From positions 1 through 50,375 of the IMG/VR virus record IMGVR_UViG_3300010376_000046: a stretch of DNA of 50,375 nucleotides. One strand, 5' to 3'. Both the position numbers and the translations under genes were made by a program. The notes under the pieces were generated by a model. That model did no database searches. It worked only from the letters and a program-made list of their open reading frames with translations, and was not told where the DNA came from. Positions 2,896 to 50,375 of the stretch are shown in pieces. The stretch comes from a virus (taxonomy: Duplodnaviria; Caudoviricetes). Position 1 is the stretch's first letter. Each line of letters opens with the position of its first letter.

Positions 2896-3231
2896 ATGAA
2901 GAAAGCACTGATTGCAGCACTACTCTGTGTCGCAGCTTCGGCCCAAGCACAGAGCGTGACCACCATTGCCACGACTGGAGTTCTCGGAAGCGGGACTTCC
3001 ATCACTGGACAATCGGTCGCAGCGTTCGGTAATCAGACTCTCACTCTCAACGTTGGGGCTGGCGGTAACAGTCTCTCGTCGGTGAAGACGGGTCCGGGTC
3101 CGGGCGTGTCTCTCAGCAGCATGTCAACTAGTCTGTCTGTCGGGGCAACTCTCGGCGGCGGAGTAGGCGGCGCAGGAAGCACAGCGGGAAGTACCGCGGG
3201 GCTTGGCCTCTCGTTACCACCGGGGTTTTAA
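2896..3231 (+). CDS. secreted Gly/Ser/Thr-rich protein P2, paralogue of P1
   Basis: RBS context TAGGAGCAGC shared with P1; signal ending AQA; aligns to P1 by eye; C-terminal Phe. Confidence 0.8.
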   Translation: MKKALIAALLCVAASAQAQSVTTIATTGVLGSGTSITGQSVAAFGNQTLTLNVGAGGNSLSSVKTGPGPGVSLSSMSTSLSVGATLGGGVGGAGSTAGSTAGLGLSLPPGF

Positions 3232-3279
3232 GGACGGAGCCGCCCCACCAGGGGCGGTTATCTTATGAATGGGGTAAAC

Positions 3280-4239
3280 ATGAAAAAGACCATCGTATTG
3301 ACCACATTGGCACTGGCGACAATGACCGCCTTTGGCCAAACTGCTGATTCGGGTTCAAGCTCGAACTCGACTTCAGGATCGACTTCAGGAGCACTCGCAG
3401 TTGGCGGGGGCTTGAGCAACGCTACTCTGAACTCGACCATTGGCGGCAATCGCAATGCAAACGCCAATCGTAACACCAACACCAACACTGCACGTGGGGG
3501 CAATGGCGGGAACGCAGCCAATACTTCGAACGTGACTGTGAACCTCGGCAGCGCGGCTGGCGACCCGAGCGGCACCGGCGCGAATGCACAGCCAGTAGCA
3601 AACGCTCAAGATCCACTTGGTTCAGCGGGCAATCCGCAGACCATCCACGAGAACATCAAGTCTGTCGGAAACCCGGGCGCAATGTCGTTCGGCGTCTCAT
3701 TCTCACAATACAACTGCGCTAATACCGCGGGTGCAGGCGTGGGTTTTATGGGTGGTGTCGTCCAGCTAGGGGGCGGACTGGAGTCGGCACCATGCAATGC
3801 ACGGGCCAACGCTTCGGCATTTTTCCAGATCGCACAGACTCTTGCGCAATCGAATCCGCAACTTTCGGCGCAATTATTTCACGCCGCAATACTTTTGATT
3901 GGCAACTCGACGAAGGACACGCAGTCCGCGCTCGCGGCGGCTGGGGTTTCTGACTGGGCCGCGGTAACTGGTCCTGCCACATATCCCAAAGCAGACCCGA
4001 CGCCGATCGTACCACCGCCAGCAGACGTGGGCAAGATTGGACCAGCTATCAGTCAACCACAGGTAGTATCGACGCCCCTCGAATCGTTGCCGCAAGCGCA
4101 ACCTCTTAGGGTCGAACCGATGCCAGCACAGCCGGATAAGACAGCAAACGAACCGGCCCCTCAAGTGCTTATAAAAAGCACGCCCGAAGCTGACGCTATT
4201 ACGGCACACGCGGCAGCTATCGCAGCGGCACAGAAGTAA
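3280..4239 (+). CDS. secreted protein P3: Ser/Asn/Gly-rich N-terminus, two-Cys domain, Pro-rich tail
   Basis: Signal MKKTIVLTTLALATMTAFG; FSQYNCANTAGAGVGFMGGVVQLGGGLESAPCNAR domain; alternative start 3265. Confidence 0.8.
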   Translation: MKKTIVLTTLALATMTAFGQTADSGSSSNSTSGSTSGALAVGGGLSNATLNSTIGGNRNANANRNTNTNTARGGNGGNAANTSNVTVNLGSAAGDPSGTGANAQPVANAQDPLGSAGNPQTIHENIKSVGNPGAMSFGVSFSQYNCANTAGAGVGFMGGVVQLGGGLESAPCNARANASAFFQIAQTLAQSNPQLSAQLFHAAILLIGNSTKDTQSALAAAGVSDWAAVTGPATYPKADPTPIVPPPADVGKIGPAISQPQVVSTPLESLPQAQPLRVEPMPAQPDKTANEPAPQVLIKSTPEADAITAHAAAIAAAQK

Positions 4240-4334: not shown

Positions 4335-4604
4335 ATGAGCAAAGGTACCCACATGGCAAGCCTCGGACCTTGTGCAATTGATACTGTGGCTATTCGTGAT
4401 TTTTCCTCGCGCCGCTTATCGCGCGAACAGCTTCAGTTCATTTGGAAGATATGCGGGCCATCCGCGGAACTGAACTTGTCTAGAAATCCTCTGTGGATAG
4501 CACTCTGCATGGCTTATATCGAAGGTCTACAGCATGGCTCAGAGCTTGCCAAGACCGCTGAGCAACACGGAGAGAACCCACAGGGCAAGGCCCAACGCGA
4601 TTAG
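4335..4604 (+). CDS. hypothetical protein
   Basis: GGAG RBS; 89-aa ORF whose 3' end overlaps a convergent gene. Confidence 0.5.
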   Translation: MSKGTHMASLGPCAIDTVAIRDFSSRRLSREQLQFIWKICGPSAELNLSRNPLWIALCMAYIEGLQHGSELAKTAEQHGENPQGKAQRD

Positions 4605-4691
4605 ATTAACGCGCGGAATGGGAACAGCAATAGCAGCAAGAATGAATACTACAAGCGCCGCTACCAGAAGAATCATACTGACGGTAATCAT
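4539..4691 (-). CDS. 50-aa two-TM membrane protein (holin-like candidate), not in ORF track
   Basis: AAGGAG RBS; MITVSMILLVAALVVFILAAIAVPIPRVNLIALGLALWVLSVLLSGLGKL; last gene of the late strand. Confidence 0.65.
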   Translation of the reverse strand: MITVSMILLVAALVVFILAAIAVPIPRVNLIALGLALWVLSVLLSGLGKL

Positions 4692-4701
4692 ACTTCACTC
4701 C

Positions 4702-4905
4702 TTAATGCAACAAATGCGGAGCATTCCCCACATGGGAATCGCTGGCGGGCTTGGCCCCTTGCGCCCGCTCTAACTTCCCGCTCAAATCCCCACCGGTATC
4801 ATTGAACCTATTGTTGTCCCCCTCCACGTAAACAAACGTGCAACTACTTGTGATGGTGATGATAATGATGGTGATGATGCTTGTGGTGATGATACGTCGA
4901 CGCAT
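4702..4905 (-). CDS. putative lipoprotein (67 aa) overlapping the His-rich peptide gene
   Basis: MRRR + Ile/Thr h-region + TSS-C22 (imperfect lipobox); its stop overlaps the RBS of the next gene. Confidence 0.5.
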   Translation of the reverse strand: MRRRIITTSIITIIIITITSSCTFVYVEGDNNRFNDTGGDLSGKLERAQGAKPASDSHVGNAPHLLH

Positions 4906-4963
4906 CAACAGCCCCACTCATAAGCAGCAAAAGGCCAGCCATCAATCCAGCAATCCACTTCAT
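4844..4963 (-). CDS. 39-aa exported poly-histidine peptide, not in ORF track
   Basis: AGGAGG RBS overlapping the fibre stop codon; MKWIAGLMAGLLLLMSGAVDA-STYHHHKHHHHHYHHHHK. Confidence 0.65.
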   Translation of the reverse strand: MKWIAGLMAGLLLLMSGAVDASTYHHHKHHHHHYHHHHK

Positions 4964-4971
4964 AAGACCTC

Positions 4972-6498
4972 CTAGTTATTAACAAGTTTAGCAACCATAG
5001 CTTCCAGTTTTGCAAGGCGTAGCTCCTGAGCTTGAATGATTGATACAAGATAAGGCACCAACCCGATGTAATCAAGTGATTGATATGCGGGTTCTGCTTT
5101 ACCATCCACATTCGGCTGCATTGCATCCTTTTCGCCATATACCAACTCAGGAACGCTTTCAGCCGCTTCATGAGCTAATAACCCAGTACGTCGTATTTTG
5201 TTCTCTTGATCCTTCCGAATAAACGTGACTGGACGCAGTGCCATAATCGCCTTGAGTGCGTCCTTTACTACCACATTCTTTACTTTGTCCTTCAATCGGT
5301 AATCGCTTGCTTGCGTCCAGCTACCTGCATAAGTACCCACGCCGCCTTGATAGAATTGGAAATTGGGCGAAGTGTCGCTACCAATAAGAAAACCCACTAT
5401 CGGCGCAGAACTGGTTGTACCACCTTCATAGCCACCAATCATCGCCAGATGCCGACCGCCCCAACGCGTCCAGCGTATACCGATATAGGCTGACTGGTAA
5501 TTTGGACAAGAAACGCTATATGCAGCAGTTTGATTTTGCCACGCGTTCCACGAAGTACCGATATCCCCGTTCGTAACAAAAACGCCCGTTCCCGTCCCAA
5601 CTACTGCAGATTGAACATTACCGCGAGCCGTTATATTACCGTTGTCTGCTACAGTAAAATTAACAGCAGTGTTCGCGCTGTTGACCATTTCAAATGCGGG
5701 TATTCCATTGTTCGCCCGCATGTACACCACATAGCCCTGCGATGCCAGATAGAACGCCGGACTCATCTGTGCGCCACTGCTAGTATTGCCAACATATTGC
5801 GCACCTGAAACTTGCAGAATATTCTTTATATTGACTTGACCGTTTGAACGGGAAATCGTCAACGGCGAATCAAGCCATGTTCCAGAGTCATTCCACCGAT
5901 CAATCGAAAAATCTGATCCGCTGTTGCTGCTTTCTGCCGTCTGGTTCGCGCCGACTGCCCAACGATATACACCACTTGACTGCCAGTAGATGCCGCGATA
6001 GTTGCCAGCCGTGCCATTCAGCACCATGGTGGCCGCTGGAAATGCAATGACGGGTTGGCTCTGGAATGTGCCAACACCGCTTACCGTCAATGTGCCATTG
6101 ACCGTATGGGCACCACTGGTCAATGCTCCAACGGTCGCCGCGCCGCTCGACAGCGTTCCCCGAATGGTCGTGTTGCCCGCATCGTTGCAACTGATGTTCC
6201 ATGCACTGCCAGCCTTGTTGATGAAACCGAATACATCATTAACGCTGTCATAGGCAATATGTGGTCCTGTCGTACCTGCGCCCGCGCCATAGTTGAAATA
6301 CAATGTGGGTACAGTCGGTGCCTGGAGGTTGATGTTCTGCGCCTTCAAGTTGGTAGTCGCTGTGACATTCGCCGCGGTGATGGCACCCGTAACCGTGAGA
6401 GCACCACCAGCCGTAACAGACCCCGGCGTCGATACATTGCCTGACGTGTCACACGTCACCTGTTCGCTGAGGTTGACTAGATTCTGTGCTTGAGTCAT
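4972..6498 (-). CDS. tail fibre with C-terminal intramolecular chaperone (peptidase S74-like)
   Basis: Beta-rich repeats; SDYRLK cleavage motif, GLLAHE, DYIGLVPYLVSIIQ coiled coil. Confidence 0.85.
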   Translation of the reverse strand: MTQAQNLVNLSEQVTCDTSGNVSTPGSVTAGGALTVTGAITAANVTATTNLKAQNINLQAPTVPTLYFNYGAGAGTTGPHIAYDSVNDVFGFINKAGSAWNISCNDAGNTTIRGTLSSGAATVGALTSGAHTVNGTLTVSGVGTFQSQPVIAFPAATMVLNGTAGNYRGIYWQSSGVYRWAVGANQTAESSNSGSDFSIDRWNDSGTWLDSPLTISRSNGQVNIKNILQVSGAQYVGNTSSGAQMSPAFYLASQGYVVYMRANNGIPAFEMVNSANTAVNFTVADNGNITARGNVQSAVVGTGTGVFVTNGDIGTSWNAWQNQTAAYSVSCPNYQSAYIGIRWTRWGGRHLAMIGGYEGGTTSSAPIVGFLIGSDTSPNFQFYQGGVGTYAGSWTQASDYRLKDKVKNVVVKDALKAIMALRPVTFIRKDQENKIRRTGLLAHEAAESVPELVYGEKDAMQPNVDGKAEPAYQSLDYIGLVPYLVSIIQAQELRLAKLEAMVAKLVNN

Positions 6499-8000
6499 TT
6501 CAGTCTAGCCTCCAGTTCAACCACGCGAGCCGACAACTCTTTAATCGCTGCGAGCGCAAGCGGAATCAAATCCTGATACCGCAAACCAAGGGTGCCATCT
6601 TCAAGTGTATCTACTGCTTCCGGTAATACTTTCTGAACATCCTGTGCAATCACCCCAATCTTCACTCGTTCGGGGTACTTAGGATCAGCATTCTTTGCGA
6701 ATGAACTGTTTGCTTTCCACAGATATTTAACTGTCCGCAGTGTACCGATTGCATCGACTGCGCCAGTCAAATCTGACTGGATATCCTTCAGCGTCTCATC
6801 AGAGTTTGCGCCCCACGCAGTTGCACCCCACGACAGGAACACACCCTGCCCGCTGGCGTTATAGACGCAGAAGGCGTTAGTCGAGTCCGGTCCATTGGCC
6901 CAGTAGTTACCAGCTTGCCCATTCGACAGCTTAGTTGGAATAACTGAACTGCCACTAGTGATATAAAGTGGGGCTGCTGTAAGATTGTATTGTGTTCCGT
7001 CATAGTACAAATACTTACCATTGCCAGTCGGGCCAAAGTAAATCACACCATTGTTAGTATTGCCACCCCAACCTTGGATAATGACTCCACCGGCTTGAGA
7101 CAGTATGGTACCGCGTGCTGTCAGATTACCGGCAGCATCGCTGACGCTCATGTTCCACTGGTTGCCAGCCGCATTGATGATACCCATACCCAATGTGGCA
7201 TCACTGCTGACATAGCCCATACTCGCAGAGCCGTCAGACTTCTGGAAATTCATGTTGTTGCGGCAGATTATCTGTCCGATAGACAAAGTGGTACCGGCAA
7301 CTGTCAGTCCTCCGCTGATTGTCGCACCCGCACGGGTCCAGAATGCACCCGCATCAGTGATTGACATATTGACTGCGGTATTTGCACTGTTCACCCACTC
7401 CATAGAAGTATTGGTGCTGTTCGAGCGAATGTAGGGTGCATAAGTACCCGTCTGGATAATCAAGCCCTGTGGCGTTCCTGCTGGCTGGCTGATGGTCAAC
7501 GGACCTGTCATGGTATCGCCAGCTTTGGCAACTTTGGTATTGGCACTAGTTTGAACCGCATCCACATACTGCTTAGGCGCAGCACCCAACGCATTAGTCG
7601 GATTGCCAGACAGAATCAGCAAACCCGTCATCGTACCGCCAATCATCGGCACTGCGCCAATGTTTGCTAGAGCCGTTGCTGCATTAGCCACATCGGACAG
7701 ATTGTTGGCTTTCGACAGATAGAGATTCGGATTGATCGAAACTGCTTGCCCCGGTGCCCATACCAGGACTCGATACTGCGTGTTCAATGGCATCGGCGTG
7801 GTAAGCTTAATACTCATCCCATCGCTGTCATCATAATCCTTGTTTGCGCCAGTGCCTGAAAGCATGGCACCGCCTACCCACACATCGGCATAGCTAGGCA
7901 CAAAGCCACCGGGTATCCCAATGGACGTCTGATTGGTAGTCGCTGCACCCTCGACGGTAACTCGAGTGGTAGTCAGTAGTGGGTCGCCAGTCATGTACAT
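6495..8000 (-). CDS. tail fibre with C-terminal intramolecular chaperone
   Basis: LSKANNLSDV and GGTMTG..PT..A..KQYVD motifs; SDETLK, GVIAQDV, YQDLIPLALAAIKEL. Confidence 0.85.
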   Translation of the reverse strand: MYMTGDPLLTTTRVTVEGAATTNQTSIGIPGGFVPSYADVWVGGAMLSGTGANKDYDDSDGMSIKLTTPMPLNTQYRVLVWAPGQAVSINPNLYLSKANNLSDVANAATALANIGAVPMIGGTMTGLLILSGNPTNALGAAPKQYVDAVQTSANTKVAKAGDTMTGPLTISQPAGTPQGLIIQTGTYAPYIRSNSTNTSMEWVNSANTAVNMSITDAGAFWTRAGATISGGLTVAGTTLSIGQIICRNNMNFQKSDGSASMGYVSSDATLGMGIINAAGNQWNMSVSDAAGNLTARGTILSQAGGVIIQGWGGNTNNGVIYFGPTGNGKYLYYDGTQYNLTAAPLYITSGSSVIPTKLSNGQAGNYWANGPDSTNAFCVYNASGQGVFLSWGATAWGANSDETLKDIQSDLTGAVDAIGTLRTVKYLWKANSSFAKNADPKYPERVKIGVIAQDVQKVLPEAVDTLEDGTLGLRYQDLIPLALAAIKELSARVVELEARLK

Positions 8001-9646
8001 TATCTGGACTCCAAAGCTTCAACACGCCGGATCAGATCACGGATGACCGCGGCTTGTATAGCAATGATTTGTTCATAATCAATTGCCAGTTGCATGTCTT
8101 TGGGTGACTCGTATCCGTCATCATCAATTTCATACATGAGACCTTCACGCGGCGCAGCGGTCAACATTTCGGTACCGCTTGTGGATTGTTTACCCACATC
8201 TTGCGCGATGAACCCGCGTACCAAATGCTCCGTATCCCCATTCTTGAAAAACTGCATAGGCGTCACGTTCTGCACAAACCGATAGGCGTACTCAGTATCA
8301 ATCGGCACAATGTGGCTCTTAATACGCCGGTCGGAAATGGCCCAACACTGGTTGACAATCGCTGCCTGCGACGGAATATACAGCCCGGCACCTGTAGTGT
8401 TATTCGATCCCGTACCTGCGCCGCTCGTATTCAGGAAACCGAACCCGCCACTGATGGTATGAGAAGTTCCACCGTTGATGATGAACTGTCCGTTGCCATC
8501 TATCGAATTTGAAAAGTACTGCGTTGTATTGTTCTGATTGACACTGCGGAACACAAAGCCGCCTGCGCCCCCACCACGGTTGTTGACGAAATCCGTTTCA
8601 CCAACACCATTCGATTCATTCCAGTTGATGTAGGTGCCCTGACCGTAGACGCTCGCACCTCCGTTACCGACTGCGAACAGACCGCCAGCACAATGCATTG
8701 CTCCATTGGCTGAAACATCTGCGGCACCAGCAATCTGCCCGGTCGCCGTGATGTTGTTATTCGCATTGAGTGTTCCATTTACAGTCAGACCACCCGCTGC
8801 GATGGTATGCCCGGCACGCGTCCACAAGGCACCGGCATCCGTCAACGTCATGTTGACCGCCGTGTTGCCGTTGTTGACCCATTCCATCTGTCCACCGCTC
8901 GCATTATTCGAGCGGATGAACGGCGCATAGCCGTTGGCGTTCAGCATCATGCCGGGACTGAACTGACCTGATGTAGCTTGTATCTGGGTAATGCCGTTGA
9001 TATTGACTGGCCCACCCAAGACCGTGCCTGCGCCCGTCCCGTCAAGCGACAGCCCACCTGTAGCCAGATTCCAGTAGATCGGGCGATAGGTGTTCCATTG
9101 TCCGTTCTGGTTGCCACTGGCGGTCTGCATGAAGTACACCGCCGACGCATCCATATGGACCATGAAACCATAGTTGCCGTAGATCAGACGGAGGTTCGCA
9201 CCGTTCGCATCGAAGTTCGTACCAACGATGCCACCAGCCGGTACCGCCAGACCTGCGTTTGCCGTCAAGAGACCTGTGACGCCTAACGTACCGGCAATGG
9301 ACGTGTTGCCGTTGTCATCCCAACTGAAAATGGTTTTGCTGTTGGCTGCATTGGTGAAATAGGTAACTTTGGTCGTTATGTTGTAGGCCATAAGCGGGCC
9401 TGTTGCACTACCACCATAGAAAATCGGCCACGCGTAGGTCGCATTTTGTGCGCCCATGTAGATCGGACCATTCTGGTTCAATGATGCACTGTTCGTTTCA
9501 CCCGGCACAGTCAGCGGACCTGTCATCGTGTCACCGGGCCGCTGCACCGCTTGATTGATTTTGGTCTGTGTCGGAGCATCCAGCGAAGTCACCGGAATGG
9601 TATTCGGCGGAATGTTCAACGGATAGGGATTCGGTCCGAGATACAT
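8000..9646 (-). CDS. tail fibre with C-terminal intramolecular chaperone
   Basis: GDTMTGPL motif; SDRRIK, GFIAQDV, DYEQIIA. Confidence 0.85.
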   Translation of the reverse strand: MYLGPNPYPLNIPPNTIPVTSLDAPTQTKINQAVQRPGDTMTGPLTVPGETNSASLNQNGPIYMGAQNATYAWPIFYGGSATGPLMAYNITTKVTYFTNAANSKTIFSWDDNGNTSIAGTLGVTGLLTANAGLAVPAGGIVGTNFDANGANLRLIYGNYGFMVHMDASAVYFMQTASGNQNGQWNTYRPIYWNLATGGLSLDGTGAGTVLGGPVNINGITQIQATSGQFSPGMMLNANGYAPFIRSNNASGGQMEWVNNGNTAVNMTLTDAGALWTRAGHTIAAGGLTVNGTLNANNNITATGQIAGAADVSANGAMHCAGGLFAVGNGGASVYGQGTYINWNESNGVGETDFVNNRGGGAGGFVFRSVNQNNTTQYFSNSIDGNGQFIINGGTSHTISGGFGFLNTSGAGTGSNNTTGAGLYIPSQAAIVNQCWAISDRRIKSHIVPIDTEYAYRFVQNVTPMQFFKNGDTEHLVRGFIAQDVGKQSTSGTEMLTAAPREGLMYEIDDDGYESPKDMQLAIDYEQIIAIQAAVIRDLIRRVEALESR

Positions 9647-39193: not shown

Positions 39194-39436
39194 ATGAAGA
39201 AAGTACTTATCATTGCGCTTCTCGCGCAACTGACTGGCTGCGCTGCATTCTGCAACAGCGAAGACCAAGGTTGCATCAACAAGATGAACGCCGTATCAGC
39301 GGGCATTGCCGCGGTAGGTGTCGCTACATTGGGTGCTGCCGCAGCATATGAAGCAAGCAAGCCGAGCGTGGTTTATGTGCGCCCTGCTCCCGTTTATGTT
39401 TGCAACGGATGGGGATACTGCCATTATGTCTACTAA
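39194..39436 (+). CDS. lipoprotein (superinfection-exclusion candidate)
   Basis: MKKVLIIALLAQ-LTGC lipobox; extra Cys pairs. Confidence 0.7.
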   Translation: MKKVLIIALLAQLTGCAAFCNSEDQGCINKMNAVSAGIAAVGVATLGAAAAYEASKPSVVYVRPAPVYVCNGWGYCHYVY

Positions 39437-45413: not shown

Positions 45414-45866
45414 ATGTCAAATAATTACAATACCATTCCGCGAGACATTTACCCGATGTTGGACTTCATTACTGAGACAGCGACGACAATGCTCAAGGAT
45501 AAAGAATACTTGCAGCCGGTTTGGTTTCTTATCAACCGAGCGGATGGAAACATGATTCCAGTTATGTCCAACTTTTTCGATCATGGAGACAAACATGCTA
45601 TAGCACAATTCGTTCGTCACATCGTCAAACAAGAGAAAGCGGACGCGGTCATTTTTCTGGCCGAGGCGTTCAGCAATCCGGGTCGAGAAGACATAATTTC
45701 AATAACGGTCGAGACCTATGATGGAATATGGGTGGCTGGCCCTGTCGTTACTGGTCAGCCTGGCGAGTGTCGCAAACTTGCTTCGATTAACTTCGAAGCA
45801 TTGGACGCAATCGGGGGAGACCTCGGGAACTATCTCCCACCCCGAAACAAAAACGAGATCAACTGA
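45414..45866 (+). CDS. hypothetical protein
   Basis: GGAG RBS before MSNNYN; ADAVIFLAEA motif. Confidence 0.65.
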   Translation: MSNNYNTIPRDIYPMLDFITETATTMLKDKEYLQPVWFLINRADGNMIPVMSNFFDHGDKHAIAQFVRHIVKQEKADAVIFLAEAFSNPGREDIISITVETYDGIWVAGPVVTGQPGECRKLASINFEALDAIGGDLGNYLPPRNKNEIN

Positions 45867-46081
45867 TGGACTCACTAATTCGAACACTGCAGAATGCACA
45901 GGAGCATCTAAGGAATGCCCGTGCGGATGCGGTTGAAGTACATGTCAAAATACAAGAAGTAGTCGACTTCATTCAATACAATGAAACGTTGACTCCGAAA
46001 ACTGGCTACATGCATCCGTCTATTATACAAGAAATTAAACAGAAGCTGGCTGATATACAGAAGTATATTGGTGCGCATTAG
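45866..46081 (+). CDS. hypothetical protein
   Basis: TGATG overlap with the upstream gene. Confidence 0.5.
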   Translation: MDSLIRTLQNAQEHLRNARADAVEVHVKIQEVVDFIQYNETLTPKTGYMHPSIIQEIKQKLADIQKYIGAH

Positions 46082-49753: not shown

Positions 49754-50256
49754 AAAAATATACATCAGAATTCGAACGCGCATTGAAAGAATTCATTCAG
49801 TACGATCCAGAAACTGGAATCCTGCGATGGATAAAACGGCCTGGTCAACGAGTAAATGTGGAAGACGTTATAGGATCACCAACTAAAGATGGTCATTTAC
49901 AAATGTCTTTTAGAGGACAAAAATTAATAGTCCATCGAGTTGCTTGGTTTTTATATTACGGTTATTGGCCTACTGAAGTAGATCATTGGGATACCAATGG
50001 GTTCAACAACGCTTTATGGAATTTGCGAGACGCTGACCATAAGATCAACGCAGAAAATAAACGTCGAGCAAATATAAATAATAGAACTCAACTTTTAGGA
50101 GTTCATTTTCGTACTGATTGTTTAGCAAATCCATACAGAGCTATCATCGGACTTAATGGAAAAACAGTTTCATTGGGTCAATATGCTACTGCGGAAGAAG
50201 CCCATTGGGCTTACATTGAAGCTAAACGGAAATTGCATGCTGGAAACACTTTGTAG
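49750..50256 (+). CDS. HNH homing endonuclease with AP2-like DNA-binding domain
   Basis: YDPETG, HRVAW, VDH.D.N..NN...NLR, LGQY.TAEEA..AY. Confidence 0.85.
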   Translation: MKKYTSEFERALKEFIQYDPETGILRWIKRPGQRVNVEDVIGSPTKDGHLQMSFRGQKLIVHRVAWFLYYGYWPTEVDHWDTNGFNNALWNLRDADHKINAENKRRANINNRTQLLGVHFRTDCLANPYRAIIGLNGKTVSLGQYATAEEAHWAYIEAKRKLHAGNTL

Positions 50257-50265
50257 GAGGCTACC

Positions 50266-50375
50266 GTGCCTAAAACGTTCGCTTCACAAGCCCAAGCCCG
50301 TTTGTTTCACGCGGCTACCGAGAAACCAATCAAAGGTCTCAAGCAATCAGTGGCAAAGAAGGTGGTGAAAGAGAC
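50266..50375 (+). CDS. small basic protein, truncated by the window end
   Basis: AGGAGG RBS + GTG; MPKTFASQAQARLFHAATEKPIKGLKQSVAKK. Confidence 0.5.
   Translation, partial: MPKTFASQAQARLFHAATEKPIKGLKQSVAKKVVKE

Follow-up and report, generated by a model that had tools for sequence, protein, structure and literature searches.

Phage lipoproteins such as Cor and T5 Llp block the phage receptor, and His-rich proteins such as the cytoplasmic Helicobacter Hpn and the histatins bind metal. To our knowledge, no phage encodes either of these two or the BRANT family (PF28279), and in none of them do codons double as a lipoprotein signal, and the open literature that we searched contained no report of a phage-encoded exported His-rich peptide and nothing relevant that links the BRANT family with His-rich peptides. 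In gene layout, the closest described systems are the overlapped spanins (the P2 LysB/LysC, T5 and Jersey families), in which the upstream gene encodes the lipoprotein signal at its 3′ end in a shifted frame (Kongari et al. 2018, PMC6139136). According to that survey, relatives with separated or overlapped spanin genes conserve the periplasmic part and differ in the signal, the combined periplasmic length ranges from 62 to 300, two-component spanins carry periplasmic cysteines for intermolecular disulfides, and the lipobox follows the consensus [LVI][ASTVI][GAS]C, from which deviations are also reported (PMC6139136). Outer-membrane disruption without spanins has a precedent in the disruptin phiKT gp28, described as a cationic peptide, 56 aa long, for which amphipathic helices are predicted (bioRxiv 10.1101/515445).

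Here we describe a locus in which a predicted exported poly-His peptide and a lipoprotein signal appear to be encoded in the same nucleotides. It lies in a 50,375-nt stretch of DNA, analysed whole and called the window below: a linear record of a soil tailed phage, 86% complete, that carries terminase, portal, major head, DNA polymerase and three tail fibre genes. Among cultured phages, the closest DNA polymerase is that of Burkholderia phage BcepGomr, at 52%. The locus forms the end of the late (− strand) block, directly behind the last tail fibre gene (Table 1). A contig of run X1 equals positions 4521–5600 of the window with 0 differences at depth 37; an assembly slip is thereby less likely, although X1 is possibly the window's own source and the match then no independent evidence. 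A scan of the locus gave no promoter-like site and terminator-like sites at chance level, and the interval between the stop of the His ORF and the 50-aa gene, searched for structured RNA, folds no better than its shuffles (z 0.08).

Table 1 Features of the dual-coded locus and of the corresponding genes in the related locus L001
Feature	Coordinates	Strand	Remarks
His ORF, 39 aa	4844..4963	−	Predicted 21-aa Sec signal and 18-aa His12/Lys2/Tyr2 peptide
Shine-Dalgarno site AGGAGGT of the His ORF	4967..4973	−	Duplex −10.9 kcal/mol, strongest of 35 starts tested
His run	4851..4894	−	15-nt unit, 2.9 copies; +1 frame reads Ile/Thr/Ser
Embedded Shine-Dalgarno-like site for the lipoprotein start	4912..4921	−	His-ORF codons 15–17
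Lipoprotein ORF, 67 aa	4702..4905	−	ATG 4905; in +1 relative to the His ORF
Predicted lipoprotein signal, 21 codons	4843..4905	−	+1 frame of the His ORF; does not align with the signal in the relative
Mature lipoprotein, 46 aa from Cys	4702..4842	−	Conserved, purifying selection
Two-helix membrane protein, 50 aa	4539..4691	−	Conserved in G001, dN/dS 0.29
Convergent ORF, 89 aa	4335..4604	+	Antiparallel; 66-nt overlap with the 3′ part of the 50-aa gene
508-aa tail fibre gene, last of three	4972..6498	−	PHROG tail fibre matches; belongs to a module differing from G001
73-aa holin-like one-helix membrane gene	L001 2263–2484		Ends with 4 His in 9 residues
165-aa lysozyme-fold gene	L001 2474–2971		phrog_3108 (unknown function)
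L001 lipoprotein	L001 2968–3153		His-rich tail, 3 His in 11

A first-pass annotation of the sequence had marked on the − strand an AGGAGG-led 39-aa ORF with 12 His in its last 18 residues, and both its sequence and its coordinates (4963..4844) hold. The ORF starts 8 nt past the stop of the 508-aa tail fibre gene. Its signal peptide and topology are predictions from our own pattern test. A Shine-Dalgarno (SD) site, an ATG and a signal-peptide-like beginning coincide at 5 starts in the window, against 0.054 per simulated genome (1,414 genomes); of the other four, three plausibly begin exported proteins, whereas the fourth, antisense within a tail fibre gene, is a false positive and shows that the real rate by chance lies above this simulated null. 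Judged by these sequence signals, the His ORF start is real. His density reaches 12 of 15 codons, against at most 6 elsewhere in the six frames of the window and of the related record G001. The predicted mature 18-mer consists of Ser, Thr, Tyr, His and Lys only, with no aliphatic residue and no Cys; its charge, computed from textbook pKa values, is +2.3 at pH 7.4, +4.9 at pH 6.5 and +11.1 at pH 5.5.

The peptide has no homolog among 1.84 billion representatives and none in phages or plasmids, in searches that are weak for a 39-aa low-complexity query. It has no significant family match in PHROG, Pfam or NCBIfam: Pfam gave nothing at E 10 (the PF28279 model may be missing from the set), and NCBIfam gave one unrelated match at E 0.34. 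Three DNA pattern scans returned 12, 28 and 18 loci, and none of these 58 shares the anatomy of His ORF and lipoprotein, judging the translations by eye. Gene calling splits at the locus, the lipoprotein alone being present in the protein collection and the His peptide in the Atlas.

The shifted frame, previously described as a 67-aa ORF that reaches the ribosome-binding site of the next gene, does run from ATG 4905 to 4702, and its TAA stop is part of that gene's TAAGGAG. It could be extended to TTG 4908 or to GTG 4917, the GTG having no ribosome-binding site. The two ORFs overlap by 62 nt, the 3′ end of the His ORF spanning in its +1 frame all 21 codons of the predicted lipoprotein signal, and a single nucleotide past the His ORF stop comes the Cys codon of the lipoprotein (4842..4840). 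The embedded SD, at −7.6 kcal/mol, ranks 7th of the 35 starts, and Gly17 of the His ORF, which lies within it, uses GGG, the rarest Gly codon (12%). On this strand the other two frames are interrupted by stops. The signal is the sole hydrophobic stretch of the lipoprotein; the 46-aa body is polar, has no Cys after the lipidated one, lacks the C-terminal transmembrane helix of a unimolecular spanin, and ends with 3 His in its last 11 residues, in the window phage as in the L001 phage. The lipobox has Thr at −3, outside the spanin consensus, yet passes our own looser scan; the relative has Val. Lipobox ORFs with a start signal number 2 in the window and 2 in G001, and the lipoprotein is one of each pair; the second in G001 is off-frame and runs off the record, which leaves the lipoprotein as the sole credible one in the complete G001. 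A separate 80-aa lipoprotein of the window (39194–39436, +) has a clean lipobox, an aromatic Cys-containing C-terminus and no match in G001.

One related phage was found, at locus L001 of record G001, with a polymerase 87% identical to that of the window. There, the 73-aa one-helix gene, the 165-aa gene, the lipoprotein and the 50-aa membrane gene follow one another, with no His ORF. The relative's lipoprotein has a plain 15-residue signal peptide, and its start has no SD (−0.5 kcal/mol, against −7.6 at the window's embedded start); it is instead coupled to the 165-aa gene by an ATGA overlap. Between the two phages the lipoprotein body differs by 13 synonymous and 9 non-synonymous changes (dN/dS 0.13, Fisher p 2e-5), which bears out the earlier reading of the shifted frame as a lipoprotein gene. 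The search for further lipoprotein relatives returned only P0002, with none among longer proteins or cultured phages; 6 candidate loci from metagenomes were set aside, 2 being the L001 sequence and 4 spurious. The first-pass annotation had proposed an overprinted lipoprotein and asked for conservation of both frames. By the comparison of the two phages, the body is a real, older, conserved gene and no newcomer, and only the signal would be overprinted; conservation was seen for the lipoprotein body, and a His ORF was found in no relative. Any current expression of the lipoprotein in the window would depend on the new signal.

The 165-aa protein of the relative matches phage genes annotated as lysozyme or endolysin at 37–45% (106 records). 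Its structural model (pLDDT 88) is closest to muramidases and lytic transglycosylases, with a middling best Z of 9.1 (rmsd 3.1, 121 aligned) and mostly lysozyme-fold enzymes in the top rows. The family to which it belongs, phrog_3108, has a lysozyme-like fold, 1,166 homologs at E 1e-20 and no Pfam model, which makes it a big endolysin family with poor annotation. Two other viral contigs carry Pro-rich lipoproteins with His/Tyr/Arg-rich tails upstream of a member of this family (L037 1387–1714 and L038 about 1690–2011). The other match for the 73-aa gene (L109) was spurious. No homolog of the relative's lysozyme family was found in the six frames of the window (50 kb of a record that is 86% complete). 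The holin-like and lysozyme-fold genes are absent from the window's slot and the His ORF occupies the same place; as far as the compared sequences tell, the His gene is an orphan standing where the relative has two lysis genes.

DNA homology between the window and G001 ends at window position 4848, at the lipobox, and resumes at 9637. From two lipobox Ser codons on, 125 of 147 nt are identical to L001; upstream of the junction, 6–10 of 30 nt are. A third haplotype (run X1; one 200-nt contig, depth 3) combines upstream sequence of the L001 type with, among the differences listed, 6 alleles in the mature lipoprotein that it has in common with the window, so the window arrangement is likely the derived state. 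Among the listed changes within the cover of this haplotype, 4 synonymous and 1 non-synonymous are unique to the window. The dN/dS of 0.13 may mostly be older than the swap.

Several neighbouring features were noted in passing. The family of the 50-aa membrane protein has neither a Pfam nor a PHROG model and was found at 32 other viral loci (L003–L034) on unrelated contigs and in very different gene contexts. The convergent 89-aa ORF is conserved in G001 (83% amino acid identity, dN/dS 0.14) and has no Pfam or NCBIfam match; its overlap with the 50-aa gene makes a second dual-coded patch, 100 nt from the first. Upstream of the locus, the three tail fibre genes in a row (4972–9646, −; about 500–550 aa each) are largely unrelated to their four counterparts in G001. 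Behind the DNA polymerase, three Gly/Ala/Ser-rich, export-like proteins (2358–2837, 2896–3231 and 3265–4239, +; the first probably starting at ATG 2478) are conserved in G001 and have no significant PHROG, Pfam or NCBIfam match. The last 123 nt of the window (50253–50375) are 100% identical to G001 45791–45913, other matches being 67–90%; this record end adjoins an HNH gene and reflects either a recent exchange or an assembly artefact. About 13–14 kb is missing from the window record, including some 13 kb that G001 carries between 45913 and 59251. By eye, that stretch of G001 shows no lysis gene, and the window's lineage may differ; an endolysin could sit in the 13–14 kb missing from the window. 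Of the 1,166 homologs of the lysozyme family, none of the best 120 is listed for a 64,435-base contig that has the same proteins as the window. Also in G001, the stretch 51357–58121 (L066), which belongs to the part missing from the window, has genes that by eye resemble a TROVE-type protein and enzymes of the 7-deazaguanine/queuosine pathway.

Recoding tests addressed the use of both frames. We kept the His protein, redrew its codons by phage usage in 100,000 recodings, and scored the lipoprotein frame by lenient criteria (an in-frame start, an SD, a basic n-region and a hydrophobic h-region) or strict ones (ATG, a stronger SD and three basic residues), both set after the sequence was seen. 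The lenient criteria were passed by 0.69% of recodings with independent codons and by 0.53% with repeat units copied together; the strict ones were passed by 0.016% and 0.009%, respectively. When the His run and the stop were held as they are in the window, these rates rose to 10.9% (lenient) and 0.19% (strict). A separate version of the test, free of the SD term, was passed by 1.1% or 4.3%, depending on the codon table. In the converse test, 90 of 200,000 recodings of the lipoprotein signal gave at least 12 His in the upstream frame, a figure that is too small because tandem duplication makes the codons non-independent. Among 28 genomic pattern matches unrelated to the locus, one (L106) also has by chance a +1 frame that spells a start of Met and three Arg. 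The earlier suggestion that both frames are constrained thus finds signs in its favour in the recoding tests, the SD strength and the start statistics. We think it probable that both frames are translated, and unlikely that the His frame is a pure by-product.

Our preferred reading, which as a whole we rate slightly above an even chance, is that a module swap gave the lipoprotein a new overprinted signal and that both products are late envelope accessories. Upstream of the lipoprotein, the swap would have replaced the holin-like and lysozyme-fold genes by a 39-codon exported poly-His gene, whose +1 frame would supply the older lipoprotein with a start, a ribosome-binding site and a signal peptide.

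The same junction could instead be the scar of a lost gene: the swap recently cut off the lipoprotein signal, only the His peptide is made, and the Ile/Thr stretch is a by-product of the His codons. Every His run reads Ile/Thr in the +1 frame, and this account is further helped by the 10.9% lenient pass rate with the run fixed, the chance Arg-rich start of L106, the Thr at −3 of the lipobox and the loss of the lysis partners from the slot. It is nonetheless unlikely: the strict rate stays at 0.19% even with the His run fixed, the junction is in frame and exactly at the lipobox, a dedicated SD stands where the relative has none, and the 46 codons carry no stop or indel, the window-only changes listed being mostly synonymous.

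How the junction arose bears on a second alternative. Either recombination at the lipobox may have joined a new tail module to the lipoprotein, or a 70-nt insertion may have split an ancestral lipoprotein gene, whose old signal would now export the His peptide. Both routes yield the present anatomy. The insertion is weakly supported: the His-ORF signal and the L001 lipoprotein signal agree in 8 nt at and about the start codon, and the alignment of their DNA beats 96% of 5,000 codon shuffles, a borderline result with the start anchored. If the insertion was simply expanded by repeats, the His frame could be without function, a stranded ancestral signal upstream of a rescued lipoprotein on which alone selection acts. 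Besides the likeness of the two signals, the tandem-repeat nature of the run and the failure to find any homolog of the peptide agree with this; we hold it improbable, as the lipoprotein frame by itself hardly accounts for an h-region without Leu, Ala or Val (the 90 in 200,000 above), the strongest SD tested has been retained, the h-region leads into a site of the signal-peptidase-I type, and the His frame ends precisely ahead of the Cys.

Under the preferred reading, in which both frames are used, the gene position suggests that both products would be made late in infection and act in the envelope. Signal peptidase I would free the predicted 18-aa peptide into the periplasm, and the lipoprotein would be lipidated and then sent to the outer membrane. 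Given its 12 imidazoles and computed charge, the 18-mer would bind transition metals (Zn, Cu or Ni) near neutral pH and, as a polycation, LPS in acid; by binding LPS or by stripping stabilising metal, it would contribute to outer-membrane breakdown at lysis beside the lipoprotein. This accessory role in outer-membrane weakening is the weakest step, possible rather than probable. As no homolog of the relative's lysozyme is found in the window's six frames, the link to lysis is one of gene position only. Against it, the mature peptide differs from known membrane-disrupting peptides in containing no aliphatic residue, nor is it amphipathic, and the family of the 50-aa neighbour lies near a lysin domain at only 5 of the 32 loci, in a scan of 104 ORFs (103 from a list of 148, one added by hand) that omitted duplicate loci and some overlapping frames. 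A bolder version is doubtful: a newborn lysis gene, in which the exported poly-His would be an acid-switched or metal-bridged outer-membrane disruptor with the lipoprotein as partner, would replace the holin/endolysin pair, and would have His codons selected to double as the partner's signal.

Both products could also be made and have no part in lysis, the peptide serving as a periplasmic metal sink or buffer and the lipoprotein blocking the receptor as Cor or T5 Llp do. The window lacks the relative's endolysin family, its lipoprotein follows the tail fibre block, several other exported proteins without family occur in this phage, and the Atlas neighbours of the His peptide are small bacterial proteins, including the His-rich BRANT family PF28279 at a feature score of 0.77 (below the 0.9 lead line; a lead only). 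We give this account little credence: a blocker fitted to the receptor of the fibre would not be expected to persist through an exchange of all three tail fibres, as the lipoprotein did, and the ATGA overlap ties its gene to the lysozyme-fold gene in the relative.

The comparison with known systems narrows what the locus may be. The His peptide is, like Hpn and Hpn-like proteins of Helicobacter, the histatins and BRANT PF28279, very short and His-dense; none of these showed a sequence relationship to it. Like Cor and T5 Llp, the window's lipoprotein is a small phage lipoprotein that adjoins receptor-binding genes, but unlike them it has been kept through a tail fibre exchange and is lysozyme-coupled in the relative; it matched no cultured-phage sequence, Cor and Llp included, at E 1. 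With disruptin gp28, the His peptide has in common its small size, its lack of homologs, a potentially cationic character and a place in a lysis slot; it differs in its predicted export signal, in being strongly cationic only in acid and in not being amphipathic, the 18-mer having no aliphatic residue. Should the peptide act at lysis, small phage peptides that disrupt the outer membrane would be of two types, this being the second.

The fullest parallel is with the overlapped spanins, which show the same re-encoded-signal pattern, so the layout is already known. As in those spanins, the window and L001 keep the lipoprotein body and differ in the signal (PMC6139136), which lies in the +1 frame of the upstream 3′ end with a 62-nt overlap. 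The first-pass annotation had held the upstream protein far too short for an inner-membrane spanin (i-spanin); length by itself is no bar to a spanin pair, the combined periplasmic length being 64–68 residues, borderline but inside the 62–300 range (PMC6139136). A lysis-cassette position, by linkage to holin-like and lysozyme-fold genes, is seen in the relative only. By contrast, the upstream partner in the window is, judged by pattern, no type II membrane protein but a 39-aa product that ends in a poly-His tail and whose signal is predicted to be cleavable; neither product has a periplasmic Cys or sequence similarity to spanins, and in L001 no i-spanin separates the lipoprotein from the lysozyme-fold gene just before it. 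With a partner of this kind and the cysteines missing, the pair would fall outside the spanins. An atypical overlapped spanin, with the first signal uncleaved and the His tail as an inner-membrane partner bridged by metal to the lipoprotein's His C-terminus in place of coiled coils or disulfides, is very improbable, for all that the gene architecture and periplasmic length fit (PMC6139136) and that the lipoprotein ends in 3 His among 11 residues in both phages and the replaced 73-aa protein in 4 among 9: the hydrophobic stretch of the His ORF is short and weak (best 19-residue mean hydropathy 1.71, against 2.58 in the 73-aa protein) and is followed by a cleavage-like site and 18–22 polar residues, the cysteines are absent, and the Atlas score for Rz1, 0.80, is at chance level, with no similarity to spanin families.

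What the locus offers is a small, well-bounded case in which overprinting would have created a signal peptide and in which a close relative shows the state without overlap. It also suggests a general route to such signals: His codons read in the +1 frame give an Ile/Thr core, and codon choice for Asp-Ala-Ser-Thr gives a start and three Arg. In this way the overlapped-spanin layout would extend to a partner that is no i-spanin.
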